Positions 4,538 to 56,818 of a DNA stretch of 64,000 bases are shown here, piece by piece. Under the pieces are notes generated by a model. It did no database searches. It saw only the letters and a program-made list of their open reading frames with translations, and was not told the DNA's origin. A program made the position numbers and the translations under genes. Position 1 is the stretch's first letter, and each line of letters begins with the position of its first letter. Source of the stretch: Phycisphaerae bacterium (GTDB lineage Bacteria; Planctomycetota; Phycisphaerae; UBA1845); the NCBI GenBank assembly GCA_963666835.2, contig CAXXGO010000006.1, forward strand, positions 2,571,743 through 2,635,742. The letters are read 5' to 3'.

Positions 4538-7500
4538 ATGGCCAGGAAGAAACTCAACAAGAACCTCGTCGTGGTGCTGACGCTTTTTGCGTTTGCTGCG
4601 ATTGTAGTGCTCTCCGTGTTGATGCTCAGGAGTCTGCAAAAGGGCGATCCGCAACACTTTGTGGATCTCGCCGTGAAGCACGAAGAGAAGGGGGAGTGGC
4701 GGCAAGCGGCCTTGTTCTATGGTAAGGCCTGGGAGAAGAGCCGTAATTGGGAGTACCTGGTTCTTCGTGGTGACATGCTCCTCAATGAAGGAGAGGTGGG
4801 CATGGCCTTGCGCGATTGGCGCGAGGTTCTGGTGAATAGCCCTGATATGGTGCAAGCCCACCTTCGCCAGTTGGAGATTCTGCTGGAGCTGGCGCAGCAG
4901 AGTGGGCAAATGCGATCGTGGACCGCGGTCCAAGAGGCTGCGGAGCCGTTGCTGGAACTCGAAACGGCTCAGAAACACCAGGCTTTCGCTCATTATGCGC
5001 TTGGGCTGGCGCTGATGGGCCTCGAGTCACAGGCGGCGGACAACGCCGAGCGGGGAATGCACGAGCTTCACGAGGCCGTTCGGCTGGCCCCGGAGGACGT
5101 GGAGTACGCCATCGATTTGGCAACTTACCAAGCCCAGCGCGGCAAACAGGACGCCGGCGAGCAGTTGTTCGAAGAACTGCTTCAGCGACACGCCGAGCCC
5201 GGCGCCGCAGCTTCGAAAGTCCGTACCGCATACGCCAAGTACTTAGCCGGCCAAGGTCGATCAGCGGATGCAGAGCGATACCTGAACGAGGGTGTGTCCT
5301 TCGCTCAGGGTGAGAGCGAGGTGTTGCTGGAAGCCCGAATGGCTTTGGCGGATTACCTGGCCAGGCAGTGGGCGACCACCAAGACGGGCGAGCGGACGGG
5401 GGACTCGGAGTTGCTAAGGCGGGCTGAGGAACTGCTGATGCAGTGTGTGGAAGAGAATCCGGACGAGTTCGGCCCGAGTGTGCGCCTGGCTTTGCTGTAC
5501 AAAGCCTCGCAGCGTCCGGAGAGGGTTGTGGAAGTCTGCGACCAGCGGCTTACGTTGGGATTCTCCCGCAAGGGGCTGAAATCGGGGCAGAACAAGCTTG
5601 ATGCTTTTCGGCTCATGATTATGGGGTCGGAGGCTAGTGTGGCGATGGCGCAAGACCCCGAGGTATCGCAGGACGAGGGACGCCGTGCCGAGTGGCTCGC
5701 CCGAGCGGAGAGCTATGTTGCCCAAGCCGGATCCGAATTCGTTGACCACCCCAAGGTGCTGAGCCAGTCGGGCAGAATCAAACTGGCCCGCGGCGGCGAT
5801 CGTGACGCTCTTGATGACTTCAGGCGTGCTGACGAACTCTATCAAGCTGCCGGCGTGGTCGATTGGGAGAACAAGCTGCGTCTGGCGAATCTGCATTTGG
5901 ATCTTAACGAGGCCGGAGCCGCCCGCGCGGTTCTTGAGGAGGCGCTTAATCAAGCCGGTGATCGCGTGGTTCTATCGTGTTGGATCCTCTACGCCCGAGT
6001 GCTGCTGCACAACGCCCAGCGTGGTGAGCCGATCGATGCCCAGACGGCCGGAAAGGTCGAGCGCGCGTTGGCGGTGATTGCCTCGGTGGATCCGGACCGC
6101 CCGGAACTCCGCCAGCTTCAGGCGGTGTTCCTGGAACTGCAGGGCAAGCCGGGGCAGGCCGGGATGCTCACCGAGTCCCCAACCGCCCGGGCTCTGCTCG
6201 AGGCTCGCGAGCGCGTGATTCAGGGGGACACGGACGGAGCGGTGGCGTTGCTTCAGGAGGCGCTGGTGGACGCTCCCGCCGACAATCGCCTGGTGACTGC
6301 TGCGGTTCGAGATCTGCTTCGGCTGGGTCGCGCCGGCGAGGCGGAGGCGGTGGCGAAGCGAGCCTTGGAGCTCAAGCCGGACGATGCGCAATTGCGGAAG
6401 CTTGCCGTATTTGCGTCAGAGGAAATGTCCCCGGAAGATCGCGACGCGGCGTTGCTCGACATCATCAACAGCGAAGAGGATGCTTTTCAACGATCTTGGG
6501 ATCTGATCGACTACTATTGGCGGCGCGAGGATCCGGCCGCCGCTCTGCGCTATTTCGCTGAGGCGGAGCAGCATCTTATCGAGAAGGACACCGAGCAAGC
6601 TCGCAAGAGCACGATTGCCCAACATAGAGCACTACTCAAGGCGAAGCTCTTCGTAGCCAAACAGGCGGATGATGCGGAGGCCATGGCTGCGGCTCGGGAT
6701 TCGGCCGTGAAATACAATGTTGACGGTGCCGAGGGTAAGTCCCTGGTCGGCCTATATCACATGTACCGCGACGAAGTGGAGCCCGCGATTGTTGCTCTGG
6801 CCGCGGCGGTGGAGGCCCAGCCCACCGATGCCCGGTCTCTAACCTATCTGGCGCAGTGCTATCAGAACGTGGAGAGGCTGGATGCGGCTCGAGACCTCTT
6901 CGAGCGGGCTACGCGCATGAATCCGAATGAGGCGTTGGCCCACAAGGGACTGGCGGCGATTGCCAAACAGCAAGGTGAAGAGCGGTCGTACCGCAGGCAC
7001 TTGGCCATCTGCGAGGGGCTCATTCCCGGTGACCCGTGGGTACAGGGGGAAGTGCTGGCGCGCAAGGAGCAGGACAATCCGGAGCAGGCGATTATTGATC
7101 GAGAAGCGCTTCTGGCGACGGATCCGGATAATGTCGCCAATCTGGCGCGGCTGGCTGCGTTGGCTGAGACTCTGGGAGATCAGGCCAAGGCCGATGGCTA
7201 CTATCAACGAATCCTGGACATTCGTGGCGATGAGCAAGGTGTCGTGGCGCTGGTCAGCAAGTACTTCGTTCGCACGGGGCGCCCGGAGTCGTCGCTCGAG
7301 GTGGTGAACGAGTATGTGGACTCGAAGACCACCGCTGACGAGAAGGCGGACGCCCGAATCCTGATTGCGGCGCACTACCTCGGATTGCAGGAACTCGACC
7401 TGGCCGAGACGGCTTTGTTGGAGGCGGCCGATGTGTCTCGTACCCTCGCCGTGTGCCACAGCCTGGGGGATTTCAATCTGCGGACTCTGCACCGCCCGAG

Positions 7501-13589: not shown

Positions 13590-13830
13590 GTAACGCAGGC
13601 TTCCGACCTGCCGGTTGCTGGTTGAGATTGTGTTCTGTTTGAACGGCCAACAGGTAACGCAGGCTTCCAGCCTGCCCTGGACTTTGGCCCTTTTTGTCTA
13701 GCGCAGGCTTCCAGCCTGCCGGTGGCGGGTCGCCTTCGCGTTTTGTTTTGACGCCTAATCGAAGTAACGCAGGCTTCCAGCCTGCCCATTGTTGGTCGCG
13801 ATCGTGTTCTGTTTGAATGCCTAATAGAGG
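13590..13830. repeat. cluster of 4 REP-like hairpin repeats (family F1: GTAACGCAGGCTTCCAGCCTGCC)
   Basis: Copies lie at 13590-13612, 13654-13676, 13699-13720 and 13764-13786. The core is a GCAGGCT-TCC-AGCCTGC hairpin preceded by GTAA/CTAG. Copies 1 and 4 share a further tail of about 40 nt (..TTG.TGGT.G.GAT.GTGTTCTGTTTGAA.G.C.AA). The cluster sits directly upstream of the ATG at 13838. Confidence 0.85.
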
Positions 13831-14872: not shown

Positions 14873-15958
14873 GTGTTCAGTCAGATGTTGTACGGACCCG
14901 ACCTGCCCACGTGGGCTCTCTTTGCTGAGATGGCCCTTGCGGGGGCGGTTGTGATCGTGGCCGGTTCCCGTTTCACCTGTCTGGCGGATACCCTGGCGGA
15001 TCGGTTGAACCTGGGGGGCGGGTGGATCGGGTTGATCTTGCTCGCAACGGTTACCAGCCTTCCCGAGCTGGTAAGCGGTGGGACGGCCACGGCCATCGGC
15101 AACGTGGATCTGGCGGTCGGAGCCATCTTCGGGAGCTGCTGTTTCAACATTACGCTTATCTTCCTGTTGAATGCCATGAGGAAAGGCGGATCGGTTCTGC
15201 ACGGGGTGCATGCAGCGCATTCTCTTTCGAGTTCGTCCGGGTTGGCGTTGATTGCTATTGCGCTTCTGGGAATGGTAGTTGTCGAGAAGTTTTCGGCGAG
15301 CCTGGTGGTCGCGCAGCGGTGCGAACTGGCTTGGGCGGGGATCATCGTGGTTGCGTACTTGGGTTGCATGCGGCTTATCTACAGCTTCGAGCGGTCCCAA
15401 AGAGCGGTTCAGAAGGAACATAGTGAAACGCCGCGGGAGCGGGTCGGGCCCGGTTTGTATGTTCCTCTTGCCTTGACGGCTTTGATAATCGTGGCGGCTT
15501 CGTGGTGGCTCGCACAGATTGGCGATGTTCTCAGTACTCATGAGATAGAGCTGATCGGCCGGCCCTTGGGAGCGACCTTCGTCGGAGCCTGCTTCCTTGC
15601 GCTGGCTACGTCGCTTCCGGAGATTGTCACGAGCGTGGCGGCGGTGCGATTGGGGAACCTGGACTTGGCGCTGGGCAATATCTTCGGCTCGAACATGTTC
15701 AACATCTTCGTTATTCCGGTCCTGAAGGTCGTCTCCGTAGCGAAAGGAGACCAGCTTCTGTTGGCGACCGATGCGGTGAACAGTACGCAAAACGTCATCA
15801 CCGGTCTGTTGGCGATCCTGCTTAGCGCTATAGCGGTGGGCGGTTTGGCCTACCAGGGCAGACTGCGCACGATTCGCCGATACGGAATCGACTCGCTCCT
15901 CATCCTGGCCACGTATATCGGGGGAATGATCCTCCTTCTGTCCGGCCCGCAGCCGTAG
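14873..15958 (+). CDS. Na+/Ca2+ exchanger (CaCA) family membrane protein
   Basis: Two alpha-repeats are present: LLATVTSLPELVSGGTATAIGNVDLAVGAIFGSCCFNI and LALATSLPEIVTSVAAVRLGNLDLALGNIFGSNMFNI. The start is either GTG at 14873 or ATG at 14885. Confidence 0.85.
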   Translation: MFSQMLYGPDLPTWALFAEMALAGAVVIVAGSRFTCLADTLADRLNLGGGWIGLILLATVTSLPELVSGGTATAIGNVDLAVGAIFGSCCFNITLIFLLNAMRKGGSVLHGVHAAHSLSSSSGLALIAIALLGMVVVEKFSASLVVAQRCELAWAGIIVVAYLGCMRLIYSFERSQRAVQKEHSETPRERVGPGLYVPLALTALIIVAASWWLAQIGDVLSTHEIELIGRPLGATFVGACFLALATSLPEIVTSVAAVRLGNLDLALGNIFGSNMFNIFVIPVLKVVSVAKGDQLLLATDAVNSTQNVITGLLAILLSAIAVGGLAYQGRLRTIRRYGIDSLLILATYIGGMILLLSGPQP

Positions 15959-16018
15959 TTATGTGGCACGGTCGTGGCGCCAGACCTGCGACGAAGACGG
16001 ACATCGCGCAGCGGTTGC

Positions 16019-16386
16019 GGCAGGTCTCGTTCCTCGACCGTGCCCTACAATGATCGCGACTCGCTCATCACGGCTGGGTGGCCCATGTTCTATTGAGTTT
16101 CTGGAATGACAATGTTGTGGCAGAACCTTGCAGAGTAGAGTTGTTTGAACATGGGGGAGCCGATGACAATACGCGCTCGCACTCGCCGGCAGGTCTCGTT
16201 CCTCGACCGTGCCCTACAATGATCGCGACTCGCTCATCACGGCTGGGTGGCCCATGTTCTACTGAGTTACTGGAATGACAATATTGTGTCAGAACCTTGC
16301 AGAGTAGAGTTGTTTGAACATGGGGGAGCCGATGACAATACGCGCTCGCACTCGCCGGCAGGTCTCGTTCCTCGACCGTGCCCTAC
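16019..16386. repeat. tandem array of family F2: 30-nt REP-like core plus two 169-bp units
   Basis: The core GGCAGGTCTCGTTCCTCGACCGTGCCCTAC lies at 16019-16048, 16188-16217 and 16357-16386, a period of 169 bp. The intervening 139 nt is itself repeated at about 95% identity. On the minus strand the core reads GTAG + hairpin (GGCACGGTC/GACC-TGCC). Confidence 0.9.
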
Positions 16387-16393
16387 AGCCTTA

Positions 16394-16927
16394 TCACGTT
16401 TCGTTTTTGCTCAGCCATTCCCGTGCCAACCGGCGTACCGTTCGTTCGAGTTCCTTGAATCCTCCGAACTCGCCGACCTTACCGTCGGCGAATTCCTCGG
16501 CAAGAACGTCGTCGAGATGGTCGTAGGTCCAGAAGCATGCGATGAAGTCCTGGAGTCCATGCACGTTATCACCGAGTTGTACCGGTTCATTGCGGACATA
16601 CACGGGGTAGTAGACGTCCTGCATGAAGTCGCTCAACCCGTCGCGCGGTTGGGTATCCCCGGCCACAATCCGGGCGAGGTGGTGTCGCGCGATAGTCCTG
16701 ACTGCTTGGTCTCTCGAAGGTACACCGGTGCCGAGTTCTGCAAGTGCGGTTTCGAACAATGGTCCGATCGTTGACAAGATCGGGTGCCTGGTTTCAGCCA
16801 GCTCCACCAGGGAAGGGGAGTATGAGCCGCTCAGCAGAGCTTGGTCAGCGGCAGCCCGGATGTCGTCACTCAGAGCGGTGCCGATCGAGTATCGCGCGGC
16901 CAACAGTTCCAGGGATGTCGGATCCAT
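16394..16927 (-). CDS. hypothetical cytoplasmic alpha-helical protein (177 aa) bracketed by F2 repeats
   Basis: The ATG at 16927 lies inside track ORF 16394..17176, whose first 83 codons run through the repeat. MDPTSLELLAARYSIGTALSDDIRAAADQALLSGSYSPSLVELAETRHP...; I recognise no family. Confidence 0.5.
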   Translation of the reverse strand: MDPTSLELLAARYSIGTALSDDIRAAADQALLSGSYSPSLVELAETRHPILSTIGPLFETALAELGTGVPSRDQAVRTIARHHLARIVAGDTQPRDGLSDFMQDVYYPVYVRNEPVQLGDNVHGLQDFIACFWTYDHLDDVLAEEFADGKVGEFGGFKELERTVRRLAREWLSKNET

Positions 16928-17042
16928 TTGGACGCATACCTCCGCAAACCAATCACTGCAGTCGAGTATAGCAGCTAACCCCTCGGTGCAGCAAGGCGCA
17001 CGGTCGGGGCGATGCAGGCCATTCGTGGCCACGCGCACTCGC

Positions 17043-17370
17043 TGGCAGGTCTCGTTCCTCGACCGTGCCCTACGAATCATCGGGGTGGCCCATGTTCTAC
17101 TGAGTTTCTGGAATGACAATATTGTGTCAGAACCTTGCAGGGTAGGGTTGCCTGAACATGGGGGAGCCGATGACAATACGCGCTCGTACTCGCCGGCAGG
17201 TCTCGTTCCTCGACCGTGCCCTACGGGATCAGGTGCATGGTGCCCCAGGGTGGCACTCCGCGGCTGCGCCGCTCCGTTTGACCCTGGGCTTTGTTGTTGA
17301 ACGTCTTCGACGTACGTTCAGCCTTCGCACCTCCTAACATGGCAGGTCTCGTTCCTCGACCATGCCCTAC
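17043..17370. repeat. F2 repeats: cores at 17043-17072, 17195-17224, 17341-17370 with one 152-bp long unit
   Basis: The 30-nt core is the same (the third copy has one mismatch). Segment 17073-17224 is a long unit with a 17-nt deletion relative to 16050-16217. Confidence 0.85.
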
Positions 17371-17640
17371 GAATCAACCGGGTGGTCTATCGCTTGAGCG
17401 GGGGGATGTCGTGTCGGAGTTATGAGGCGGACGGGCGGCTCGGCAACGACGCTGGAAGTAAGGAAGAAAATGCACGCATCCGCGTCCGATAACGGCTCCG
17501 GATTTCGCGGGAAATCCGTCCGGGAATGCGGTATACTGAAGGGCCTTGACGAGGTGATTATCCGACGTACGCGCTGTGCGTGGACGATAGGCCTCGTCAC
17601 CGGTCGGGCGGTTTCTTGTTTTCGGAGAGGAGAGAGGACC

Positions 17641-20600
17641 ATGCGACGGTTCTGTATCGGCATTATCTTCGGGATTTCGTTTGTTCCGGTTACGCCCCTT
17701 GCGGCGCAGACCGACGCGGAGTGGACCGCCGTTGACGGAGATTACTCCGCCGCCGGGAACTGGAGCACTGCGCCGGACGTGCCCTGTAACGACGGCACCA
17801 CGTATAACGTGACAATCGCTCCGACCGGGGCCGATGTGCTCTTCGACCTGGCCGCGTGTACGGTTGACACGCTGGACCTCGGGGCCGGGACGACCTTTAC
17901 GATCAATCTCGGCAACGCGTTCACGATTGACACCGAAGCCCTCATCGGGGGCGGGGTGTTTGTGGATAGCGGATCATTCACCGCCCCGTTTGTGGATACC
18001 GGTTTCACCGGCACATCGGCGAGAGCAACGGCGGCCAGCGGGGCACAGGTTGTCATCCCGGCCACCACCTACCAAGGGACGGGAATCAGTTCCGGCGTGC
18101 TCTTCTCTGCGACTGGGGTCGGCACGCTGTTGGACCTGTCTGCGTTGACGGATATTGACTGCTATGCGAACCACGGCGGTTCGCCGACTCGCATCATCTC
18201 GGCAACGGACGGAGGCCGTATCGACCTGTCCAGCCTCGAGAGTATCCGGGGCGGCTGGGGCATGAATGACGATCGTCTCGACATTATGATGACTGGAGGC
18301 GGCAGCATTGATCTTAGGAACCTGCGTTCCGTAACGGCGGGCAACGTCCGCTTCGCAGTGGAAGACTCCACGTTTGCTCTGCCGGCGCTGACCTCGGCCG
18401 TGGGGATGAGTTTCAGTATGGCTCCCTCTTCCACGCTGGACTTGCCGGCTCTGACGACTCACTACACCGGGGGGTACGACGTTCCTCCGCTGGGCGTTGT
18501 GAATGCTGACGTCTTGGGCAGCCTCACCAGTGCGACTCTGGCGATCGGCGATCAGGGCACGTTCAACGCCCCGGTGCTGACGATGTTCAACGGCAGCACG
18601 CTGACGCTCGGTCCGGATCAGACATTGAGTGTCCCGGCGTTTGCCGAGATTGACGATTCCAGGCTCTACCTGAGCGGCGGCGTGACGTATGCGGTGGCCG
18701 CGGATGTCGTCAGCGCTACCGGAATCAGTAGCGGGACCATCTACTCGGCTGAAGGGGTTGGTACGGTGTTGGACCTCTCGGCGATGGTCAGCTTCGATGC
18801 TCTGTGGAACCACGGTGGCGTGCCGACGCGGACGATCGCCGCAAGTGATGGGGGCGTTGTTGATTTGTCGGGTCTTACGACCATGCGCGGCGGGTGGGGC
18901 ATCAACGATGATCGGTTGGATATATCAATGACCAGCGGGGGCGAGGTTGATCTTACGGCGTTGCAGTCGATAACCGGCGGCAACGTTCGTTTCGTATCGG
19001 ATGCCGGCAGCCTTACACTCCCGATGTTAACCTCGGCGGTGGGGATGGGCTTCAGCATGGTGCCAGACTCGACTCTGGAGCTTCCCGCTCTGTTGACACA
19101 TGACACCGGGGGGTACGATGTTCCGACCGGCGGTGTGGTAAACGCCGCCGATCTTCACAGCCTACTGAACGCCACTTTGGCGATCGGCGATGGCGGGACT
19201 TTCAATGCTCCGAGCCTCACTAAGTTCAACGGGAGCACGCTTACTCTCGGACCGAATCAGACCCTCAACGCGCCGCTGTTCACTGAACTCGACAACGGCA
19301 GGATCCACCTTAGCACAGGGAGCACGTTCGCCGTGGCCGCGTCTTCCTACATCGGGACCGGGGTCAGCGGCGGGGAGATCTTCTCCGCCCGCGGGGCCGG
19401 AACCGTTTTGGATCTCTCCAGCTTCATCAGTTTCAACGCCCTCTACAATCATGGCGGGGTGCCCACGCGGACGATTCTTGGCAGCGATAACGGGTCCGTC
19501 GACCTTTCGGGCCTGCAGACCCTTGAAGGCGGATGGGCATTCAATGACGACCGCCTGGACATCGTCGCCGAAGCCGGAGGAACTGTGGATATTTCGACGC
19601 TGCCGGCGGTGGCGGCCGGCCGGGTTCGGCTCAGAGCCGAGTCTGCCGGGCAGTTGCTGGCCGGGGCGATGTTGACGGTCGAGCACGTCCAGACGATCAA
19701 CACGGACGGAATCGGGAGTCTGTTGGACCTTTCGTCGGTTACCGCCATGTATGGCAGCGGAACCGGCACGGTCAACGTTTCGGGCGGGGCGACGCTTGCC
19801 GCCGACAGTCTCGAAGTGGTGGACGGGCTGGCGTTTACCCTCGCCGGGCCGAGCACATTGCGGCTGGCCGGGGCGACGACGATGACCGGCACGACGTTCA
19901 ATTACAATGGCGGGACTATCAGCGGGGACGTCATTCTGGTTGATTCCACACTGGCGAACGGCCCCGGGGGCACGGGAGCGGCTCGGTTTACTCTGCGAGG
20001 CGAATGCGCGTTCAGCGGTCACGTATCACTCGGTCAGACCGTTGTAATTCAGGGCGGCGGCTATGGTGACGCAAATGTGACAGCGGACGACGGGTTCGTT
20101 AATTCCGGTACGATTATCCTCGAGAGCATCAACGGCGGGTTGGCCTCGAAGTTGTTCGTGCAGAATGGTCAGTTGGAGAACGCCGCGGGCGGCACGATCA
20201 GCTTGTGGATTGGGACCGGTGGTAACCGGTCATTGGAAGCCGAGCTGGTGAATCGCGGCTCGATCGACATCACGACCGCCGACAATAAGGGGACCGTGAT
20301 TGGCAAGGATGGTGCCAACCACACGACATCGGGCGTTTTCACAATCAACGCGACGGAATTGGATCTGGTGCAGGTTTACGGGGACAGCTTCACCAACCTG
20401 CCCGGAGGGATCGTGGCGGGGGTCGGGGCCTTGGATGTGTCGGCCTGCGGATTGGTTAATCAGGGAATCGTCCGCCCCGGCTCGTCCGCTGGAGAGCTCG
20501 ACATTGTAGGGGATTACACCCAGACCGAGAGCGGGGTGTTGGAGATCGAGATTGGGGGACCGCTGGTGGGTGATCTGTTTGATGTACTTGACGTAAGTGG

Positions 20601-24447: not shown

Positions 24448-24968
24448 GGGGGTGCCCCACCGCGGTGCTTGTTGCGTTGGGAGGGCCGTACCGATTCGCC
24501 GCCGGGGTGGGTGGGGGACGGATGCATCGACATACGGGGTTTTCTGTCTACTGTGATGTCTTACAGGCCGAAGGACGGGGCACTATCGCTGCATAACGCA
24601 AAGACCATGGCAGGTCTCGTTCCTCGACCGTGCCCTACGGCCCGGGTGCCCCATTCACCCCGGCGTCTGTTGCATCAGGATAGCCGCAACGATTCGCCGC
24701 CGGGGTGGGTGGGGGACGGATGGAGGTTTGAGACACGCTGGCATTCGGAGATCAGTCCCCCACCCTTCGGCCAATGAACAGTGTGTATACCGGGAATGCA
24801 TCGATATACGGGGTTTTCGGTCTACTGTGATGTCGCACAGGCCGAAGGACGGGGCACTATCGCTGCATCACGCAAAGACCATGGCAGGTCTCGTTCCTCG
24901 ACCGTGCCCTACAGGCTGTGATGTCGCACAGGCCGAAGGACGGGGTACCCTCCGAGGGATGGGCACCC
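24448..24968. repeat. composite repeat region sharing the F2 core
   Basis: A 114-nt unit is duplicated at 24525-24638 and 24799-24912 and ends in the F2 core (24609-24638, 24883-24912). A 33-nt unit CGATTCGCCGCCGGGGTGGGTGGGGGACGGATG occurs at 24492-24524 and 24690-24722. A partial third copy lies at 24916-24944. GGGTGCCCCA seeds occur at about 24449 and about 24644. Confidence 0.85.
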
Positions 24969-25970: not shown

Positions 25971-26654
25971 TCACCCCCGCTTGCGGGGGTTCTTCAGGCC
26001 CGTGGTGAGCTTGTTGTTGACCTCCCGGAGGACCCGTGCGGGCAGGACGTCCCGGTGGGTGGAGAGGAACCGGCGAACGGCTTTGGCGTCGTGCGGGACC
26101 AGCGCCCGCAGTGCCCATGACAGGGCCTTGACCACCATATCGTCCGGATCTTCCGCGAGAAGCTCGCAAACGGCCAGCGTGCGTGGAACGTCACCGGTCC
26201 CGCCGGCCGATTTCTGGTTCGAGGGTACGGTAGATACCAGCGCCGCCCGTCGCCACCAGCGGTCTTTGGACCGAGCCCAGCGGTGGATGTGGTCGTCTTT
26301 CAAAATCTGCGCCTGCCACGCCGGTCCCGAGATGTAACCGGCGAACGTGTCCACATCGCCCCAACTATCGATGCCGCGACCCAGCTTCTCTATCACCGTT
26401 GGACGCAGGATTCCCGCCGCGTCTTCGTAGTGGAGGATCAGTGCATAGCCCATGAACCGGCACGACGGCTCATCGAGCTCCACGAGGCTAAGGGCGATCC
26501 GAATGATGTCTCGGCCCCCTGCGTTGGCCAGCTCCTTCGACACCTGCTGCCGAAACGCGTGCAGGTTTGGCGCCGTTTGGTCGGGTAGGGCGCGAAGCCG
26601 GCGGACTATGGCGGCGGAAACAGATGCAGTTTTGCGTGAGTTCCCTGAGGTCAT
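25971..26654 (-). CDS. DNA alkylation repair protein (AlkC/AlkD-like HEAT-repeat family)
   Basis: ...SWGDVDTFAGYISGPAW...HRWARSKDRWWRRAALVSTV...DDMVVKALSWALRAL... resembles the DNA alkylation repair enzyme family. Confidence 0.7.
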   Translation of the reverse strand: MTSGNSRKTASVSAAIVRRLRALPDQTAPNLHAFRQQVSKELANAGGRDIIRIALSLVELDEPSCRFMGYALILHYEDAAGILRPTVIEKLGRGIDSWGDVDTFAGYISGPAWQAQILKDDHIHRWARSKDRWWRRAALVSTVPSNQKSAGGTGDVPRTLAVCELLAEDPDDMVVKALSWALRALVPHDAKAVRRFLSTHRDVLPARVLREVNNKLTTGLKNPRKRG

Positions 26655-26778
26655 GGTTCAACGCCTTCTTGACTACCGCATGGTCCCTGATTGGTTCATC
26701 GGGGAGTATACTACTATGGAGCTGGTATTGCATGAAGACCTTGTGGGGGCCGACTCTTCGGAACTGCGTCGTGGAGGA

Positions 26779-27642
26779 CTAGCGACCATGTATGCACTCC
26801 CCGCGGGCGAGGCACTTATCCCATGCACGGCTTGCCAGAGGTTGTTCCGACAGTAGCGCCTGAAACTTGGATTCTCTTAGGACACGAATCATCCATGCGT
26901 TCTTAGCGACCACACGGTATCGTCCCGCCCACGGGTGCTTCTCGAAAGCGACTATCTTGTCGCATGATGGTGACGACTGCCAGTCAATACCTGATACCAG
27001 GACGTAGTCGTCCAAATAGGCGTACGATGGCGTGGGCATGCTCCCGGCAACGATGAACGCGCTCGACAGCGAAAACAGGATGAGAAGTGCACACGTCAAG
27101 ACCATAGCAATCGCGAGTTTGCGAAGCCAACGTCGTGCTAACAACAACGCACACAACGCAGGCGCGATGGCGAGCACGGACCACCTGAGAATGTCAGTAG
27201 CGTGCCGACACCACTTGTTCATCCGGGCGTATTGCGGCTCCACTGAACGCGAATACCATGACGGTTTGAGATCATGCCGCACGTCCTCCACCGTCAGTGT
27301 CCCGTCCTCCGAACTTAGGTCCGCGTTGCCAAGGTGCGCTTGCACGATTGAGTGCAACAGAGAGCAGCTAAATGCTCGTCCGCTCAACGGCGTACCATTT
27401 GACGACCGGAGGGCCCACAAGAAAGAAGAGATGGCGATCCCGTACAGCGCTGCAATCGCGAGCAGCTTGGCTAGTATCTTAAGCGCCTTGCTCCGAAAGA
27501 GGGTTTGGAGTCCGGTTGGGATACTGAGCAAATAGGTGGCTTCGTCCTGCGGATCGAAAGGGTGCGCGCATTCCGGACACTGCGACATGCCTTGGCCACG
27601 CAGGTCGTGATGACATTTCCGACAATACACGGTATTCGACAT
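26779..27642 (-). CDS. zinc-ribbon membrane protein (CxxC...CPEC family, outlying paralog)
   Basis: ATG at 27642: MSNTVYCRKCHHDLRGQGMSQCPECAHPFDP, followed by 4 or more TM segments. GC content is visibly lower here (about 50% in sampled 60-mers) than in neighbouring genes. Confidence 0.55.
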   Translation of the reverse strand: MSNTVYCRKCHHDLRGQGMSQCPECAHPFDPQDEATYLLSIPTGLQTLFRSKALKILAKLLAIAALYGIAISSFLWALRSSNGTPLSGRAFSCSLLHSIVQAHLGNADLSSEDGTLTVEDVRHDLKPSWYSRSVEPQYARMNKWCRHATDILRWSVLAIAPALCALLLARRWLRKLAIAMVLTCALLILFSLSSAFIVAGSMPTPSYAYLDDYVLVSGIDWQSSPSCDKIVAFEKHPWAGRYRVVAKNAWMIRVLRESKFQALLSEQPLASRAWDKCLARGECIHGR

Positions 27643-27903
27643 TCCCCATGTGTCACAGCTCTGCCCCGTGACTATACGCAACGGATGGTCCTTAATCAAG
27701 CGAGACCGGGGTCTGTCGCCCGTTTCATCGCCTCATTCGGTCACCCGGGCGCTGGCGCCTCCGGAGAGGCAACGAGTGTCTGCTCTTTCCGCGTTCTGGG
27801 TGTTGTCCCAACATGTATGAGCGGCGCGTTGCTCTATTGCGATGGTCAGCTACCTTGTGCGAACGGTAGCTGATGACGGACTGGTTGAGATTCCCCGAAA
27901 GCG

Positions 27904-37704: not shown

Positions 37705-39993
37705 ATGAACGCGAAGATGGTGTGGAAAGTCGTTCTGGCGTTTACGGCTCTGCCGCTTACGTATGGAGCAGTGACGGCCGAGGCAGCGCCTCCGCCGTTT
37801 ACGTACCAGGGTCAACTTAAGCTCGAGGGGACGCCCGTGAGCGGGACCGCGGATTTCCGCGCGGAGGTCTACGGGCAAGCCACCGGAGGAACGGCGCTGT
37901 GTGCGTTGAATCCCGTCTACGGGGTGGACGTACAGGACGGGCTGTTTACGATTCAGCTCCAAGGGTGCGGCGACGTCTTCTCAAACCCTCCCGTGTATCT
38001 TGAGGTTAGTGTGGCGTTCCCGGCGGGCGGGACGTTCGTGCTTCTTACTCCTCGCCAGATGGTTACACCGGCTCCGATGGCGTACTACGCGTTCGAAGCT
38101 CCCAGTAGTGGAGGAGACTCGCCGTGGACTTCGGTCGGCGACGACATCTACTACGATGACGGGCAGGTCGGGGTCGGCACGACGAGTCCATCCTATGATC
38201 TCCACGTGGTCAGCAGCGGGGCCCGGGCCGTCTCGGCTACAACGAGCAACGTCGGTGGGCGGGCGTTGTTCGGGGAAGCGACGGCCGTCACGGGGAGCAC
38301 CGCCGGGGTCGTCGGTTCGTCCCGCAGTGTGAGCGGGAAGGGAGTCTATGGACAAGCCAATGCGTCTTCCGGAGTTGTGTACGGCGTTCATGGTGAATGC
38401 AATAGTACAAGTGGGCGAGGCGTCTACGGTCAATCTCACGCGACAACGGGAACTACATACGGAGTCTACGGCTCATCCGCCGGATCGAGCGGTCGTGGCG
38501 TCTACGGTTACAACGATGGCGCCGGTTTCGGTGTCTTTGGCAAGAGCAGCTCGGGCGCGGGTGTTTGGGCCGAGAGTAGCGGGTCCTCCACTCTCTACCC
38601 TGCGCTCTATGCGTACAACTCAAACGTCGACGGCATCGGAGTGTTCTCGACAACGACCAGCACTGATGCTAACGCGGTCTTCGTGAACCGGGGTGCCGGG
38701 CCGATTATCAAAGGTTTCAGTGGGTCTTCCGGGAACGACCACATCTTCGGCGTGGATAACGACGGACACGTCGGAGTCGGTCGGGGACCGTCGTCGGCGA
38801 TTCCGCTTGATGTCCTCGGTGGCAACAACTGGGACGTGGCGGGCGGCGACGCCGATCTGCGAATCGGAGACAGCAGCTACGGAATCAAAATGGGCGTTGC
38901 GCTCAATGGGCTGGGAGCGGGAAGCGCCCGGATCTTCGCTCAGGGCGGTAACCACAAACTCACTCTTGGCTCAAATGACGAGGATGTACTTACGATCGTC
39001 GACAGCAACACGACCACAAGCGGCGACGGCTACGTCGGCATCGGCACTCCGGACCCCGAACAACGATTGCACGTCGTAGGGAAAATGAAGGTCGAGGGCG
39101 TGGGTAGTGGTACGTCCGTTTGGGTCGACAACGGCGCCACTGCGGTTTATGGAGACGGATCCAATACCGGTGTCAAAGGGGTCGGCGATACGTATGGCAT
39201 GTACGCCAGCGGCGGCACGTACGGTCTTCGCGCGTCCGGGACTTCTTACGGCGTCTACTCCAGCAGCGACGCCGGGACTGCTGTTTATGGGTACGGAACC
39301 TCCGGTACGGGCGTCTACGGCAAGAGTAATACGGACATAGGGGTGAGTGCATACGCCGGGGGAACGGGAACGAGCAACCCGGCCCTGAAGGTCGAGAACT
39401 GGAACGCCGGTGGTATTGCGGTCTTCTCGACAACAAACAGTACTGACGCCAACGCGGTGTTCGTGAACAAGGGGACCGGGGACCTGATTAAGGGGTTCAC
39501 GGGTGCTTCCGGTGGGGACCTTGTCTTCCGGGTGCAGAATGACGGGAAGACATCTGTGAGCGTGCTGCAGATCACCGGCGGGAGCGACTTGGCGGAACAG
39601 TTCGACGTCACCGAAGATGCTCAGCCGGGGATGGTTGTGGCGATCGATCCGAAGAACCCGGGAAAGCTCTGCATTGCGCGCGGAGCGTATAACCGCCGGG
39701 TGGCGGGTGTTATCAGCGGGGCCAACGACTTGGAGGTCGGCATGGTCCTGGCCGACCTGCCGGGCTCGCAGAACTCTCAGCCGATCGCTCTTTCGGGGCG
39801 TGTGTGGGTCCGCTGCGATGCCACCGACCGCGCGATTGAGCCCGGGGATATGCTCACGACCGCCGACCGTCCGGGGTACGCCATGGTGGCCGCCGACGCG
39901 CGACGCGCGTATGGCACCGTGATCGGGAAGGCCATGAGCGGGCTGGATAAGGGGGCGACCGGCATGGTTCTGGTTCTTGTCAATCTGCAGTAG
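37705..39993 (+). CDS. tail-fibre-like secreted protein (Gly-rich GVYG repeats; C-terminal Peptidase_G2/IMC-like domain)
   Basis: After the signal peptide, the N-terminal FTYQGQLKLEGTPVSGTADFRAEVY...LTPRQMVTPAPMAYYA module is typical of tail-fibre-domain proteins. There are dozens of G(R/K)GVYG/YGVYG repeats. The C-terminus GGSDLAEQFDV..QPGMVVAIDPKNPGKL...RRVAGVISG resembles the DYAEYFE-type intramolecular-chaperone autocleavage domain. Confidence 0.7.
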   Translation: MNAKMVWKVVLAFTALPLTYGAVTAEAAPPPFTYQGQLKLEGTPVSGTADFRAEVYGQATGGTALCALNPVYGVDVQDGLFTIQLQGCGDVFSNPPVYLEVSVAFPAGGTFVLLTPRQMVTPAPMAYYAFEAPSSGGDSPWTSVGDDIYYDDGQVGVGTTSPSYDLHVVSSGARAVSATTSNVGGRALFGEATAVTGSTAGVVGSSRSVSGKGVYGQANASSGVVYGVHGECNSTSGRGVYGQSHATTGTTYGVYGSSAGSSGRGVYGYNDGAGFGVFGKSSSGAGVWAESSGSSTLYPALYAYNSNVDGIGVFSTTTSTDANAVFVNRGAGPIIKGFSGSSGNDHIFGVDNDGHVGVGRGPSSAIPLDVLGGNNWDVAGGDADLRIGDSSYGIKMGVALNGLGAGSARIFAQGGNHKLTLGSNDEDVLTIVDSNTTTSGDGYVGIGTPDPEQRLHVVGKMKVEGVGSGTSVWVDNGATAVYGDGSNTGVKGVGDTYGMYASGGTYGLRASGTSYGVYSSSDAGTAVYGYGTSGTGVYGKSNTDIGVSAYAGGTGTSNPALKVENWNAGGIAVFSTTNSTDANAVFVNKGTGDLIKGFTGASGGDLVFRVQNDGKTSVSVLQITGGSDLAEQFDVTEDAQPGMVVAIDPKNPGKLCIARGAYNRRVAGVISGANDLEVGMVLADLPGSQNSQPIALSGRVWVRCDATDRAIEPGDMLTTADRPGYAMVAADARRAYGTVIGKAMSGLDKGATGMVLVLVNLQ

Positions 39994-42707: not shown

Positions 42708-45700
42708 CTAGCGTCTGTTCTCAGGACGCGCCGGTTTTCGCGAGACGGGTTCATCGATGGGCGTCGCCTCGTCCGCCATAAGTTGCAGGAATCTGTCCGG
42801 GATGGTAATGCTCCGATCTTGGGCAAACAGGGCGATGTCATTGGCGTCGAGGATGCCGTTGCCGTCGAGATCCGCGGCTTGCGCGGCAGGCATACCGACT
42901 GTCAGAGCAATGTCATGAACGGTAGCACTCGAATGCCCGATCCCGGCCAGCTCTTGTTGCTGTGCCGGCGATAGGTTGCCTACGCCTGCCGGTTGAATCC
43001 GGTAAGCCGTTTGGTTGCCGCGCGGCTCCGCTATCAGGTTCGAGGCGTACATCAGTGTCCGGCATCCGGCTCCCGGGTCATCACCGGTCTTGAGGAAGTT
43101 GATCAGGATGCAGAGGAAGTCATTGGTGGTGACGATTCCGTCGCAATCGAAGTCGGCGTGATACGGCGGGGGAGGACCAACCAGCTCATCTTCGCACCGG
43201 GTTATCACCGGGGTCGGCCAGGTCAGGTATTGCCTGAACAGGATTGCGTAATCGGTGATGTCGACGACGTTGTTGTTGTCAGCATCTCCGCAGCGCAGTT
43301 GGTTGGCGGCCGTTAGGTCGGCTACGAATTGCCCGCCCGCCGGGCGAAGATGGACCGTACGCCGAAGCGTGTGCAGGTCGTCTTTCACGCTGAGGCAATC
43401 CCAGGTTCCGTACGGTACGTCGAGGGATGCCGAGGCAACACCGTTCTGGAACGTCAGCTCTTCTGCAAACGTGGTTTCGGAGGCGGTGCCCGGGCAGGGG
43501 ACCCCGCAACTACTCAGGACGAAGCTGAGGCAGCGCGGACATTCCCCGTTCAGCTCCGCGGCTTCCGACCGGACTATCAGGTCGAGGATGTTGTCACCCC
43601 CGACAACAACTGTCTGTTGGTGGGTCGCAGAGCTGCCTTGGGGATCGGTGGCCGTCCAGGTTAACGTGGTCGTGCCTACGGGGTATTGATCGTTCCAGCA
43701 GTCCAACCCGTCATCGCGCTCACAGGTCGCCGAACATGACCCGCAGTTGTCCTCGCAGGTAGGTTCGCCCGGGTCGACGTGAGCTCCACATTCGCCCGGG
43801 TCGGGGGTAGCCTCGACGTCGGGCGGCGAGGCAACCGTGGGAGCTTGGCAATCGTCCACGATAACCGTTTGCCGGCATGTGGTCAGGTTGCCCGAAGGAT
43901 CGGTAGCCGTCCAGGTCAAGGTGGTTGGTCCTACCGGATAGGGGTCGTCTTCGCAGTCCTCACTGTCCTCCCTGCTACAGGTTACCGTGCATGCGCAGTT
44001 GTCGGTACACGCAGCCGACCCGGGGAAGACCACCGCCTGACACTGATCCGGATCGTTGCACTGCTCGACGTCAAGTGGGCACTCGATTTCCGGATGTTGT
44101 TCGTCGCTGACCGTAACCGTCGTCGTGCATGTGGCCGTGTTGCCCGCCTCGTCGGTTGCCGTCCACGTCAATGTAGTAACCCCGACGGGATAGGATGCGC
44201 TCTGGCAGTCCTCGCCGTCGTCGCGCGAGCAGGACGTCGTGCAATTGCAGGCATCAGTGCAGGTGGGCTCCCCGGGGTCAATTGCGATTTCACACGCATC
44301 GGGATCGACCGTGGCGGGGAGAGGGTCGCTCGGGCAGGTCAGGATCGGCGGGGAGTCATCGACTATAAACGGGATCTCGTCACCCAGCAGCGGGAAGTTC
44401 TGAGTGCCCAACGAGTCTGCCAGGTGTGTTGGAGATTCGTGATCGAGATCGAAAGCAATCGAGCCGTGGCCGGTACCGGCTCCGGCCGGCTTGGTCGACA
44501 GTAATAGCGTGGCCATTGGGTTGTCAGCCGCGGAGGCGGCTTCACCCAAGGGAATAGCCACCGCGTATGCGATAGTGCCGGTGCAGCCGTCCACCGAGAC
44601 CGCCTTGAAGATCTCGGCGGAGAACGGAGACAAACCGGAGGTCGGACACGGGGAGATCCCCGGGACGGAATGATCACCCGGGGCTATGGCCAGCAGATCG
44701 AGTAAGCATGCGTCGTATTCCAGGAAGAACTGCCCACCGATCATGTCCTGTCCGTAGAGATTGCGTACGTCAATCGTGACGCACAGATCTTGCCCGGACG
44801 AAAAGCAGGTCCTTTCGTTGTGCAGATTCAGCTCCAGCAACCCGCAACTGACCGGATCGCTCGTACATACGGCGGTCTCTTCGTCGCAGAGGTCCGCCGT
44901 ACACGCGATGCCGTCGTCGCATAAGCTGATGCCGGGCGTGCAGATGCCCGCCTCGTTGCAGAACTCGTCACCATCGCAAACGAGCCCGTTAGGGCATGGC
45001 GTGCCGGCGGGTTCATAGTTGGGCAAACACTCGCCGTCGCCGTTGCAGGTGTCGGGATGATCACAGGTGGAATCGGCGGGATCACCACATGGTGTGCCCG
45101 ATGGTAACAGCACATACGTGCAGCCTTCGATTGGGTCGCACGAGTCCTCGGTACACTCGATTTCATCATCGCAGACGAGGGGGCCTTCCGAGACGCAGCC
45201 GGCTGTAGTGTCGCAGTACTCGACGCCCGTGCAGGCGTCACCGTCGTCGCACATCTCGTGAAACGGTACATGCTCTCCACATTCGTCCGTTACTTCATCA
45301 CAACTGTCGCTGGTACACTCGATTCCGTCATCGCATCGAGTGACGCCGGGCTGGCATGTTCCGGCCCCGTCACAGGTTTCGTCGCCGTCGCACCATAGAC
45401 CATTGGAGCATGGTGCTCCCAGCGGCTCGATGTTCTCGTCGCAGTTGCCGGTGCCGTCGCAGGTGTCCGGTCTGTCACATGCGCTATCGCTCGGATCACC
45501 GCATGCCGTCCCCTGCGCCACGCCGGGGTGGATGCAAACGCCGCTGTTGCAGACGTCGTCGGTACATTCATTCCCGTCTTCAGTGCAACCGGTGCCGTCC
45601 GGTTCGTGGTTTGGCAGGCACACGCCCGCTCCGTTGCAGGTGTCGGGGGTAGTGCATTCGTCGTCTGTAGGATCACCGCAAGCTGTGCCGATCTCGCGGT

Positions 45701-47642: not shown

Positions 47643-48143
47643 AGCAGGTTCCTCCGATGTTAGATGAAAACGCTGTCGTGCCGATGACAGCAGAAATCTC
47701 CGTGGCAGATGCCAGAGGCATGTGAGTAGATGTCTTCCTGGCTTCGCGACATTGAATGTCCACACTCCGGCTGTTGATAGGATTACTGACAGACCGTAAC
47801 ACAAGAATATGCCCAGTGTTTACTTGCGCACAAGAGGGCTATTGAGGTGACGTCCACTGGGATGTCATCCATACAGATGACGTCCGGGCGGCCGTCACCT
47901 GGATAGGTGAATGGGCGACTCGTCAGTTATGGCAACGGGTGGCGTGGCAATCCGCGCGGATCTTGACGGGGTGACCGAGCAGGCATCGGGCCAGGGTAGG
48001 TGGGAACGCACAGACCCCGGATACCGTCAATAGCCTGTTTGGTCGGATTGTACGTCCGATATCGTTGTGCGTAGACCTAGCCGGTCGGTCTGGTCCGGAG
48101 AGACTTTGGACAAACTGCTGTTCACCCCGGAAAGACGTAAGAA

Positions 48144-48216
48144 TGGAGCCGAGCGGGCTCGAACCGCCGACCTCCTGGTTGCAAACCAGGCGCTCTCCCA
48201 GCTGAGCTACGGCCCC
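48144..48216 (-). tRNA. tRNA-Ala: tRNA-Ala (anticodon UGC)
   Basis: The minus strand reads GGGGCCGTAGCTCAGCTGGGAGAGCGCCTGGTTTGCAACCAGGAGGTCGGCGGTTCGAGCCCGCTCGGCTCCA. It folds as a cloverleaf with anticodon loop TTTGCAA, the G3:U70 Ala identity pair and a TTCGAGC T-loop. CCA is not encoded. Confidence 0.93.
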
Positions 48217-48247
48217 GTGTACGCACGACGAAGCTGCCGCAGCCGCG

Positions 48248-48269
48248 TAGCGCAGGCATTCTGCCTGCC
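48248..48269. repeat. solitary F1-type REP-like hairpin variant (GTAGCGCAGGCATTCTGCCTGCC)
   Basis: It matches 13699-13720 except that the loop-closing pair is flipped: GCAGGC-T TCC A-GCCTGC becomes GCAGGC-A TTC T-GCCTGC. GTAG lies directly 5' of it. Confidence 0.5.
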
Positions 48270-48483
48270 GCCGGCGACCTTGACGGCCCCGCGCGTGCCA
48301 GGGGAAGCTACCATATCGGCGGGGATAAGCAAGCGTCGGGACCCACCCCGACCGGCGAGACCATGAGCGATAACGTGCCCACGCCCGGCGGGGCGACCAT
48401 TGTATAACGGCGAACAGAGATTCCGCGGCGGTGGCGGTGACTCGGGGTCGCCATGCGGGTGCGGTTCTGCAATACTGGCGATC

Positions 48484-50174: not shown

Positions 50175-50225
50175 CCATCATTGCAGAACGCGCGGGTGCC
50201 CCATGTCCTTTCGTGTTTAGGATGT

Positions 50226-52324: not shown

Positions 52325-52349
52325 CGCGTTGACGTCCCCACTCCGGCAC

Positions 52350-55013: not shown

Positions 55014-55017
55014 CAGC

Positions 55018-56783: not shown

Positions 56784-56818
56784 TCTTTGCCGCGATTCTC
56801 CGACGTTGGCCAAGCTGC

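Follow-up and report, generated by a model that had tools for sequence, protein, structure and literature searches.

A GTAG-tagged 30-nt hairpin repeat of Phycisphaerae, probably of the REP class, is locally amplified with a second, unrelated hairpin repeat

A 30-nt sequence recurs in the DNA of a Phycisphaerae bacterium (assembly GCA_963666835.2; positions 2,571,743-2,635,742 of the 2.67-Mb contig CAXXGO010000006.1, a stretch of 64,000 nt referred to here as the window), and the locus raises the question of whether this unit is a REP element and, if so, how it came to lie in tandem arrays. A pattern search of the window at ≤1 mismatch returned eight matches, all on the plus strand, compared to a chance expectation of 0 in 100 dinucleotide shuffles. 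The eight same-strand copies of the preliminary description were thus recovered, at 16019, 16188, 16357, 17044, 17195, 17341, 24609, and 24883; seven of its start positions were exact, and the one given as 17043 is corrected to 17044. The copies (candidate REP cores, all eight intergenic) are listed below with the strand on which GTAG is read.

16019-16048, minus strand: core copy 1; the minus strand reads GTAGGGCACGGTCGAGGAACGAGACCTGCC
16188-16217, minus strand: core copy 2, from the pattern search
16357-16386, minus strand: core copy 3, 7 nt past the ORF178 stop codon, with the GTAG orientation on the ORF178 sense strand
17044-17073, minus strand: core copy 4, from the pattern search
17195-17224, minus strand: core copy 5; a sister strain differs at the bulge base (G>A, plus strand)
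17341-17370, minus strand: core copy 6, a bulge-base variant with one mismatch (G22A)
24609-24638, minus strand: core copy 7, closing a 117-nt repeat (24522-24638)
24883-24912, minus strand: core copy 8, closing a second 117-nt repeat (24796-24912); just one of these two units exists in the sister strain

On the minus strand, an unpaired GTAG abuts a hairpin (GGCA[C]GGTC/GACCTGCC) whose 8-bp stem carries one bulge and closes a 9-nt loop; in this reading, the unit can be written as GTAGGGCACGGTC...CCTGCC. This hairpin is the MFE fold on both strands, at -10.9 and -10.8 kcal/mol as RNA on the two strands (z about -2) and -6.4 as DNA. We compared 21 full-length copies, 8 from the window and 13 from other loci (L001 to L007 and L013). 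GTAG abuts the stem in 20 of them, the remaining diverged copy having GCAG, and variation is concentrated at the unpaired bulge base, which may be any of C, T, G, and A or may be missing; the form that lacks it folds at -14.7 kcal/mol. The 9-nt loop is nearly invariant between lineages, as is the loop together with the 3' arm (GTCGAGGAACGAGACCTGCC), whereas changes in the 5' arm and bulge are not compensated. No compensatory change in the stem pairs was seen among the 21 copies, so that it is the palindromy (z about -2) that supports the hairpin. A promoter and terminator scan tied neither kind of signal to the cores. The REP architecture that had been proposed, namely, a GTAG tag, a bulged hairpin, a size of 30 nt, and an extragenic position, holds.

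The 13 further copies, each set in an unrelated flank, come from at least three other Phycisphaerae-like lineages, and the full set of 21 occupies at least 13 unrelated flanks (window, L001 to L007, and L013). The boundaries of the core are sharp, flanks being unrelated right up to GGCAGG and directly past CCCTAC. Neighboring genes have no function in common (mqnE, an M3 peptidase, a Na/Ca exchanger, a pilin-like and a thioredoxin-like protein, and others), and placement is mixed: promoter-proximal, 3'-proximal, and mid-intergenic, with several cores 0 to 14 nt past stop codons in the GTAG orientation on the sense strand. In L002, cores bracket mqnE. The one lying 15 nt upstream of the mqnE start is at the same position in L013, where the DNA is 83% identical, which indicates that the element is old and vertically retained. 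No protein from the 2.67-Mb contig of the window was among the best 120 MqnE relatives of L002; hence, more than one species carries the same 30-mer. The nearest PdxJ relatives (77 to 79% identity) carried no cores in 6.7 to 21 kb each, and synteny upstream of pdxJ is not conserved, so they offer no clean comparison of filled and empty sites; for the core at the mqnE stop codon, a clean empty site was likewise missing from the L002/L013 comparison. Scans for the core gave at least one short contig in genomes and at least six in metagenomes, none with a transposase, and no match in viral contigs.

We consider the 30-nt unit to be, with a probability of roughly 0.6, a REP of the GTAG-tagged superfamily in a genome of the Phycisphaerae (Planctomycetota). 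This superfamily is known in Planctomycetes, and Rhodopirellula baltica carries GTAG REPs (families GTAG-20 and GTAG-21) together with RAYT/TIRYT genes (PMC3733652). The core matched none of the sequence strings in the supplementary text of that study (PMC3733652); on this reading, it is a new sequence family of a well-known class, locally amplified with a second, unrelated hairpin repeat. Its spread was probably due to a Y1 HUH (RAYT-type) transposase encoded elsewhere, which would recognize the single-stranded hairpin and GTAG. As had been noted before, the window has no RAYT gene: neither the window ORFs nor the gene tables of the loci gave a PF01797-type match, and a Y1 transposase was looked for without success in the 64 kb of the window, some 17 kb of additional sequence from the sister strain, and every core-carrying locus. 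TnpB and integrase genes were likewise absent from the window and from every core locus gathered. Counting against the REP reading are the absence of a transposase from these sequences, the head-to-tail arrangement (which is rare for REPs; PMC3733652), the absence of covariation in the core, its invariant loop, and a patchy distribution. The loop points to recognition of a specific sequence, and a binding site for a host factor could account for it just as well.

The window cores cluster as 3+3+2, and the flanking DNA is reiterated along with them. The first cluster contains a regular array and, together with the second, members of another hairpin family, as follows.

16018-16387, unstranded: tandem array with a 169-bp period (TRF: 2.2 copies, 98% matches), arranged as core-139-core-139-core
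16076-16164, plus strand: family 2 hairpin element 1, GGGTGG-CCCATGTTC-[56 nt]-GAACATGGG-GGAGCCGAT, which is the long-range stem of the preliminary description
16245-16333, plus strand: family 2 hairpin element 2, in the second tandem unit
17083-17171, plus strand: family 2 hairpin element 3, within a 151-bp unit

The two 139-nt segments between cores are noncoding and 98% identical; at 24.6 kb lie a 274-bp doublet and the 117-nt repeats, each of which ends in a core. The sister strain (99.7% identical), assembled independently, has the same array, which excludes an assembly artifact. That strain has one 274-bp unit compared to two in the window, with the junction inside the core-ending repeat, and no cores were found in 17 kb adjoining the window. 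Directly oriented cores could recombine unequally or allow slippage, and either event would duplicate the DNA between them; a duplicated 139-nt segment carrying the second-family hairpin would yield core-139-core-139-core, and the doublet at 24.6 kb may have arisen likewise. Because tandem reiteration with flanking DNA has been described for REP clusters (PMC3733652), the departure from simple REPs that had been claimed for these units is not upheld. The statement that the 169-bp period moves a recurring ORF between frames is correct: 169 = 3 × 56 + 1, the frame changes from unit to unit, and the ORFs at 16078 and 16247 lie in different frames and are noncoding. A small peptide read through the core (MTIRARTRRQVSFLDRALQ) was also dismissed, as the frame of the core differs between contexts.

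The long-range stem of 9 bp, CCCATGTTC (16082-16090) and GAACATGGG (16147-16155) around 56 nt, was confirmed, and additional copies provide compensatory support for it. It is, in fact, a member of a separate, abundant, and much larger hairpin family, GGGTGSCCCA...TGGGGRA, in which covariation is strong and loops range from 2 to about 67 nt. Such hairpins also occur with no core nearby (window position 50224; L013 positions 11422 and 14123); the stem does not belong to a structured RNA of 169 nt. The whole unit folds no better than its shuffles (z = +0.49 on the plus strand and -0.64 on the minus strand), and the 87-nt stem region by itself is marginal (z = -1.73 and -0.60, respectively). Rfam contained nothing relevant over the whole window at gathering thresholds or over positions 15900-17700 even at E ≤ 10. 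Of the proposed structured unit, the stem stands and the single 169-nt RNA does not. One group II intron is present in two copies, each placed exactly at the 3' foot of a GGGTG-family hairpin, a position that may help to explain how the intron spreads. The window holds a further REP-like family, GTAR-C-GCAGGCT-TCC-AGCCTGC, and the genome, with this family and the GGGTG hairpins, is rich in short repeats. A sigma-54 promoter suspected in the 56-nt loop (TGGCAGAACCTTGCA) was discarded since its spacing is one base short and its GG is not conserved in other copies.

The exact window copies are all head to tail. The first of them has an inverted partner, and a protein-coding gene lies between the composite repeats.

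15955-15990, plus strand: degenerate REP copy in opposite orientation, GTAG, 6 nt, GGCACGGTCG-TGGCGCC-AGACCTGCG
16394-16930, minus strand: ORF178, an uncharacterized all-helical protein bracketed by composite repeats; the sister strain has a gene call for it

The TAG within the GTAG of the degenerate copy is the stop codon of the Na/Ca-exchanger gene. The partner (15965-15990) agrees with the core at 19 of 26 positions, compared to 0.17 extra matches of the loose pattern expected per window by chance, and is separated from core copy 1 by a 28-nt spacer, giving an HH-type heterodimer; as DNA, the inverted pair (15955-16052) folds at -28.8 kcal/mol (z = -4.5). Thus, the single orientation reported earlier is valid for the exact copies only. 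A TT pair of cores 173 nt apart was found in L013, so that HH and TT dimers (15955-16048 and the L013 pair) exist besides the 3+3+2 clusters. No intact inverted doublet (REPIN) was found, the sole inverted partner in the window being degenerate; a second candidate at 16995-17020 was rejected, as its only match, 9 nt exact, is at chance level. An exhaustive search found 499 remote relatives of ORF178, compared to only ORF178 itself in a word-index search, and a single-sequence AlphaFold model (pLDDT 50) was set aside. Because ORF178 has no Pfam, NCBIfam, PADLOC (defense-system), or PDB match and no cores flank its homologue in L017, we dismissed it as a partner protein and do not count it as part of the repeat family.

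Other explanations were weighed against the REP reading. The nearly invariant loop and 3' arm next to an uncompensated 5' arm and bulge, the core kept upstream of mqnE in two species, and the cores just past stop codons in sense orientation would all suit a conserved cis-acting site, either bound by a host protein or serving as a UTR RNA motif, that is under purifying selection and not at present moved by any transposase. Domesticated REPs of Escherichia coli also bind host proteins, and a cis-acting site is therefore compatible with a REP origin. However, the neighboring genes are functionally unrelated, promoter-proximal, 3'-proximal, and mid-intergenic placements occur alike, and the 3+3+2 local reiteration is odd for an operator, so we regard this as possible but rather unlikely. 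The same invariant loop, orthologous retention in a 5' leader, and placement 0 to 14 nt after stop codons also fit a broader proposal, in which the 30-mer is not just selfish but a functional, sequence-specifically recognized element common to several Phycisphaerae lineages, being either the substrate of a planctomycete-specific Y1/HUH enzyme in a persistent, vertical REP-enzyme partnership or a hairpin of UTRs whose conserved binding factor determines mRNA 3' ends or translation; we hold this to be distinctly unlikely. Under the REP reading itself, the units are probably transcribed within UTRs and would act there as RNA or DNA hairpins.

It is very doubtful that the mobile unit is a larger composite (139 nt plus core, or 61 nt plus core at 24.6 kb), i.e., a nonautonomous IS200/IS605-type PATE with a right end of hairpin plus CTAC that inserts 3' of CTAC. 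In both clusters the duplicated segment does begin after CTAC and end with hairpin plus CTAC (positions 24548-24551 are CTAC, followed by TGTGATG..., and past the core at 24912, CTAC is followed by AGGCTGTGATG...), and the 169-bp units are compatible with a composite. IS608-type elements prefer the lagging-strand template, which the G-rich strand carrying all window copies (GC skew about +0.07) would be; yet eight copies stemming from about three independent events are too few for any statistical power on strand bias. Moreover, the larger units are only local, the cores outside the window all being flanked on each side by unrelated DNA; a convincing left-end hairpin is missing, and where a tandem repeat begins and ends is inherently ambiguous. 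Site-specific recombination sites (integron attC/CALIN-like or Xer/dif-like) would be direct in orientation and imperfectly palindromic with a bulge, could bracket cassettes as window cores lie on both sides of ORF178 and L002 cores on both sides of mqnE, and would have ends only one base from ours (GCCCTAC/GTAGGGC versus RYYYAAC/GTTRRRY). An attC site, however, spans 57 to 141 nt with the architecture R''-L''...L'-R' and RYYYAAC/GTTRRRY ends, and it accompanies promoterless cassettes with intI nearby or in attC clusters, whereas the core is a single 30-nt palindrome with no second L'/L'' pair, and neither an integrase nor any other tyrosine recombinase was found in the window. Among the bracketed genes is the housekeeping mqnE, where one site is kept at an orthologous position; the ORF178 homologue elsewhere has no such sites, and two of the "cassettes" are the 98%-identical 139-nt noncoding segments, all of which makes this reading highly improbable. 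Finally, a 30-nt repeat in one orientation within each cluster recalls a CRISPR-like array or the guide-RNA scaffolds (omega-RNA or tracr-like) of an RNA-guided nuclease. CRISPR arrays combine regular repeats with unique spacers of about 30 to 40 nt and usually cas genes. The intervals here are 116 to 657 nt, two of them being 98% identical, no cas, tnpB, or iscB gene was found in the window, Rfam had no match even at E ≤ 10, and single copies are scattered over unrelated loci; such an origin is scarcely credible.

As a GTAG REP, the family is mainly a catalogue entry of modest interest and leaves the current picture of REP biology unchanged. To our knowledge, work on REPs has dealt almost entirely with Proteobacteria. 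A 30-mer that is present in several lineages, with one copy predating a species split and a copy number difference between strains at 99.7% identity, would make it practicable to ask whether, outside that group, REP-RAYT partnerships are old and passed on vertically. It would also flag intergenic regions prone to rearrangement and to misannotation, since spurious ORFs cross the repeats.

Terminator-like hairpin motifs are the targets of bacterial class C group II introns. The GGGTGSCCCA...TGGGGRA family resembles them in being GC rich and intergenic with an intron at the 3' foot, but it lacks a U-tract, has a conserved 5' GGGTG tag and a 3' GGGGRA..GAT tail, and varies in loop length from 2 to about 67 nt. 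REPINs, the inverted REP doublets that Bertels and Rainey are said to have described in 2011 as mobilized by RAYTs, have REP building blocks in common with the cores, and the inverted pair at 15955-16048 folds into a long hairpin; unlike in REPINs, the doublet with conserved spacing is not the repeated unit, as 20 of the 21 copies are singletons or directly oriented, all eight exact window copies are direct, and the one partner is degenerate. PATEs and the "REPtron-like" elements of class 3 TnpA-Y1 (Quentin et al. 2018, PMC6006769) likewise combine a one-strand hairpin with a tetranucleotide at high copy number. Class 3 Y1 transposases occur chiefly in Planctomycetes, the phylum of the core host, and such elements in Planctomycetes and Acidobacteria, but the foot reported for class 3 is CnGA (PMC6006769), compared to GTAG in the core, for which no transposase or paired left and right ends were seen. 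GTAG REPs themselves (Di Nocera, De Gregorio, and Rocco 2013, PMC3733652; E. coli REP/BIME) differ from the core in that its 9-nt loop is long and almost invariant, its exact copies here are head to tail, its only inverted partner in the window is degenerate, and the loci searched have no RAYT. Nonetheless, the core shares with them a unit of 20 to 40 nt, an unpaired terminal GTAG, a stem of 6 to 13 bp with loops of up to 9 to 15 nt, tolerance of bulges, an extragenic position mostly just downstream of ORFs, and an occurrence as singletons, HH/TT dimers, and tandem clusters, with several families per genome (PMC3733652).

A pattern search for the 30-mer GGCAGGTCTCGTTCCTCGACCGTGCCCTAC, the core, returned eight matches in the window with at most one mismatch, all on the plus strand, where shuffled sequences predicted 0. 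All eight cores are intergenic, and consecutive starts are 169, 169, 687, 151, 146, 7268, and 274 nt apart.

Core copies in the window, by start position (pattern search)
16019, 16188, and 16357, plus strand: cores 1 to 3, between the Na/Ca-exchanger gene (end 15958) and ORF178 (16394-16930, minus strand), which are convergent
17044, 17195, and 17341, plus strand: cores 4 to 6, between the divergent ORF178 and Ig/dockerin gene (start 17641)
24609 and 24883, plus strand: cores 7 and 8, between a 100-aa gene (end 24423) and a convergent NAD-synthase-like gene

The preliminary description had placed core 4 at 17043, which is corrected here to 17044; its other seven positions stand, and TRF recovered the 169-bp tandem that it reported (period 169 bp, 2.2 copies, 98% matches, 16018-16387). 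Because a sister strain that was assembled independently (ENA ERZ21869600 contig_74, here L008; 99.7% identical) shows the arrangement too, the array is not an assembly artefact. The window belongs to the chromosome of a Phycisphaerae-class planctomycete, as judged from its genes for a DUF1569 protein, an Ig/dockerin protein, PdxJ, DapA, PriA, and QueG and from the best PdxJ relatives (77-79% identity), which are named Planctomycetes, Phycisphaerae, or Phycisphaerales, one contig bearing the label Phycisphaerae_UBA1845. ORF178 encodes an all-helical member of an uncharacterised protein family; an exhaustive search found 499 remote relatives (about 175-aa proteins, best 45% identity) and a word-index search none, and neither ORF178 nor its relatives matched Pfam, NCBIfam, PADLOC, or PDB. 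Inside a 1698-aa ORF (42708-47804, minus strand), a 177-bp tandem repeat of 59 codons (45526-46056; about three copies, 76% and 63% identical to the first) probably corresponds to a domain repeated within a large secreted protein.

Read on the minus strand, the core is GTAG-GGCA(C)GGTC-GAGGAACGA-GACCTGCC, an unpaired GTAG followed by an 8-bp stem with a single bulged C and a 9-nt loop. This hairpin is the minimum free energy fold on both strands, as RNA (-10.9 and -10.8 kcal/mol, z about -2) and as DNA (-6.4 and -5.2 kcal/mol). The boundaries are sharp: in all copies, the flanks are unrelated up to GGCAGG and immediately after CCCTAC. Variation is greatest at the bulge (C, T, G, A, or deleted); core 5 differs from its sister-strain counterpart at exactly this base, and a bulge-less variant on a metagenome contig (L007, 1124-1152) has a perfect stem of -14.7 kcal/mol. 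Within a 762-aa ORF (37705-39993), GGCATGGTCCTGGCCGACCTGCC at 39739-39761 is similar to the arms of the REP stem, here around a 6-nt loop, and may be a chance sequence or a decayed intragenic REP.

The claim that all copies share one orientation holds for the exact copies but not overall, as a degenerate inverted copy, GGCACGGTCG-TGGCGCC-AGACCTGCG, lies at 15965-15990, 28 nt from core 1. It is preceded by a GTAG (15955-15958) within which the exchanger gene has its stop codon. Two extra loose matches to the core were observed, against 0.17 expected per window. Core 1 and its inverted partner, an HH heterodimer in the terms of Di Nocera et al., fold together as one extended hairpin (-28.8 kcal/mol, z = -4.5); a TT pair, with cores 173 nt apart, is present in L013.

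Altogether, 21 full-length copies with at least 13 unrelated flanks were collected; GTAG is kept in 20 of them, and 13 match the consensus exactly.

Cores outside the window
L001, MAG contig: one exact and one diverged core, 31 nt apart (genome collection scan)
L002 to L007, six metagenome contigs: eight core copies (metagenome collection scan)
L013 (GCA_029260055.1), a relative of the L002 organism with 90% identical MqnE: three further cores

In L002 and L013, whose mqnE regions are 83% identical at the DNA level, a core occupies a matching position, 15 nt ahead of the mqnE start codon (28/30 bases identical), which indicates that this insertion predates their divergence. A second L002 core overlaps the mqnE stop codon, the stop being the TAG of GTAG, and is absent in L013. 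The 2,674,492-nt contig of the window is not represented among the best 120 relatives of the L002 MqnE; thus, the window organism is a species other than that of L002, yet it carries the same 30-mer. The distribution is patchy, with 0 cores in the loci of the nearest PdxJ relatives (L009 to L012, 6.7-21 kb each).

The tandem array starts and finishes with a core (core-139-core-139-core), and across ORF178 from it is a similar core-121-core block, 88-90% identical. Two 274-bp units, each with a 117-nt repeat ending in a core, occupy the window at 24.6 kb, whereas the sister strain has a single unit there, in which the upstream half of unit 1 continues into the sequence that flanks unit 2 downstream; that strain also holds a group II intron at this site. 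Copy number therefore shifts on the time scale of strain divergence. The rearrangement junctions fall inside repeats, and on the simplest reading the arrays would have formed when directly oriented cores recombined unequally or slipped. REP clusters repeated in tandem along with their flanking DNA are already on record, and isolated head-to-tail REP dimers are otherwise rare (PMC3733652). The two strains also differ at a variable block (window 26604-27895, L008 16930-18657), which in the window encodes a 306-aa double-zinc-ribbon membrane protein (26779-27699, minus strand) and in the sister strain holds instead a plus-strand gene of 357 aa that is unrelated to it. In the contig of the sister strain (L016), a D12-class N6-adenine DNA methyltransferase gene (5864-6934, about 4.1-3.1 kb left of the window start) adjoins pyrG (CTP synthase).

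The 169-bp unit had been proposed to be one structured element; however, its whole-unit fold is no better than shuffles (z +0.49 and -0.64). The proposed 9-bp long-range stem, CCCATGTTC/GAACATGGG, is real and supported by covariation, but it belongs to a separate repeat, family 2, with the consensus GGGTG(G/C)-CCCA...stem...loop...stem'...TGGG-GGRA..(C)GAT. These hairpins are abundant, with loops of 2 to about 67 nt.

Family-2 hairpins
Window 50224-50312: same 74-nt span, unrelated 56-nt loop, compensatory T-A to C-G change
L013 11422 and 14123: 3-nt loops, G.U pair in one
Window 16076, 16245, 17083, 50194, and 24950 (minus strand): further sites
Window 24450, 24644, 51762, 51858, 55018, 56819, 57128 (minus), and 57184 (minus): distant variants
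L013 11542 (minus) and 14238 (minus): distant variants

For 13 copies, the nine leading stem pairs were aligned, with arms taken at a fixed distance from conserved anchors and longer loops replaced by TTT; a caveat is that the arms were selected by eye. All 117 cells were paired (100%), with double changes in four of the nine pairs (22 cells); the covariation score was 0.63, compared with 0.30 in shuffles (0/500 reached 0.63) and at most 0.18 in a slid register. Several pairs are G.T on the GGGTG-bearing strand and would be A.C on the opposite strand, so the structure is strand specific, as expected of an RNA or single-strand DNA element. Since family-2 elements occur without a nearby core (window 50224; L013), the two families are independent, and the 169-bp unit is a mosaic of both, made up of core, linker, family-2 element, and linker. 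Possible identities for the family-2 hairpin are a terminator-like element, a REP/TIR-like element, and a MITE.

Directly 3' of a family-2 hairpin, between GGGTGGGGG and ACTGAT, the window carries a group II intron (52363-54319; Rfam RF02005 at 52422-52646) that includes an RT ORF (52751-54256). A second copy in the sister strain (L008 13168-15123, 99.7% identical) sits at another family-2 hairpin foot, between GGGTGGGGG and ACGGATG, at a point corresponding to window 24517/24518, where the window has the empty site; the homing site appears to be TGGGGG^ACNGAT. Small membrane proteins that are paralogous and share a double zinc ribbon (CxxC...CPECG) are encoded in a row at 50480-50911, 51153-51707, 51911-52657, and 54489-55172, all on the minus strand; about 930-bp repeat units (repeats at 54346-57166) and family-2 hairpins separate them, and similar genes occur on the core-carrying contigs L002 and L006. 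A third short family, GTAR-C-GCAGGCT-TCC-AGCCTGC (GTAA/GTAG tag, 7-bp stem, 3-nt loop), occurs at 13590-13787 (four copies), 48247-48270, and L015 18484-18568 and is clustered at about 44-66-bp spacing; one copy adjoins a tRNA gene (48144-48216), and another cluster, with an inverted member, lies just outside the window in the sister strain.

The invariant loop of the core, its orthologous 5'-leader copy, and its placement near stop codons would also suit a conserved cis-acting site, either a binding site or an RNA motif, rather than a mobile repeat; however, the neighbouring genes are unrelated and the cores are reiterated locally, and we consider this reading unlikely, although a REP origin would fit it as well. 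More doubtful still is a composite miniature element of the IS200/IS605 type that would insert 3' of CTAC: each duplicated segment begins after a CTAC and finishes with hairpin plus CTAC, and every copy lies on the G-rich strand (GC skew +0.07), whereas the composites are local only and roughly three independent events provide no statistical power. Recombination cassettes bracketed by cores and CRISPR or guide-RNA arrays are likewise disfavoured.

A cognate RAYT is the defining functional criterion of REPs. In agreement with the preliminary description, no window ORF has a Y1-transposase domain; TnpB/IscB, Cas, and integrase domains were likewise not found in the window ORFs, nor were any of these four in the gene tables of the fetched loci, and no cognate RAYT was detected in about 80 kb of DNA from the window organism or in the other loci. 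We also assessed the core as a REPIN or attC site, the cores as a CRISPR, and the 169-bp unit as a single structured RNA, and none of these assignments held. Class 3 Y1 transposases are found mainly in Planctomycetes (Quentin et al., PMC6006769), and Planctomycetes are already among the hosts of the GTAG-REP super-family through R. baltica, where families GTAG-20 and GTAG-21 occur along with numerous tyrosine-transposase genes flanked by repeats (PMC3733652). The core ends GTAGGGCA and GACCTGCC were not found in the supplementary text of PMC3733652. The architecture fits that super-family, as first proposed: like its members (PMC3733652), the core is of the right size, has an unpaired GTAG abutting a 6-13-bp stem, tolerates a bulge, has a long loop as in some families, is extragenic and mostly downstream of ORFs, and occurs in dimers and clusters, with several families per genome. 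We conclude that the core represents a genuine and clearly delimited sequence family, new among the GTAG-type REPs, in a lineage that is under-sampled; it is amplified locally along with a second hairpin repeat, and its link to a RAYT is putative. Its significance is modest, the new element being the sequence family, within a GTAG-type REP class that was already known.
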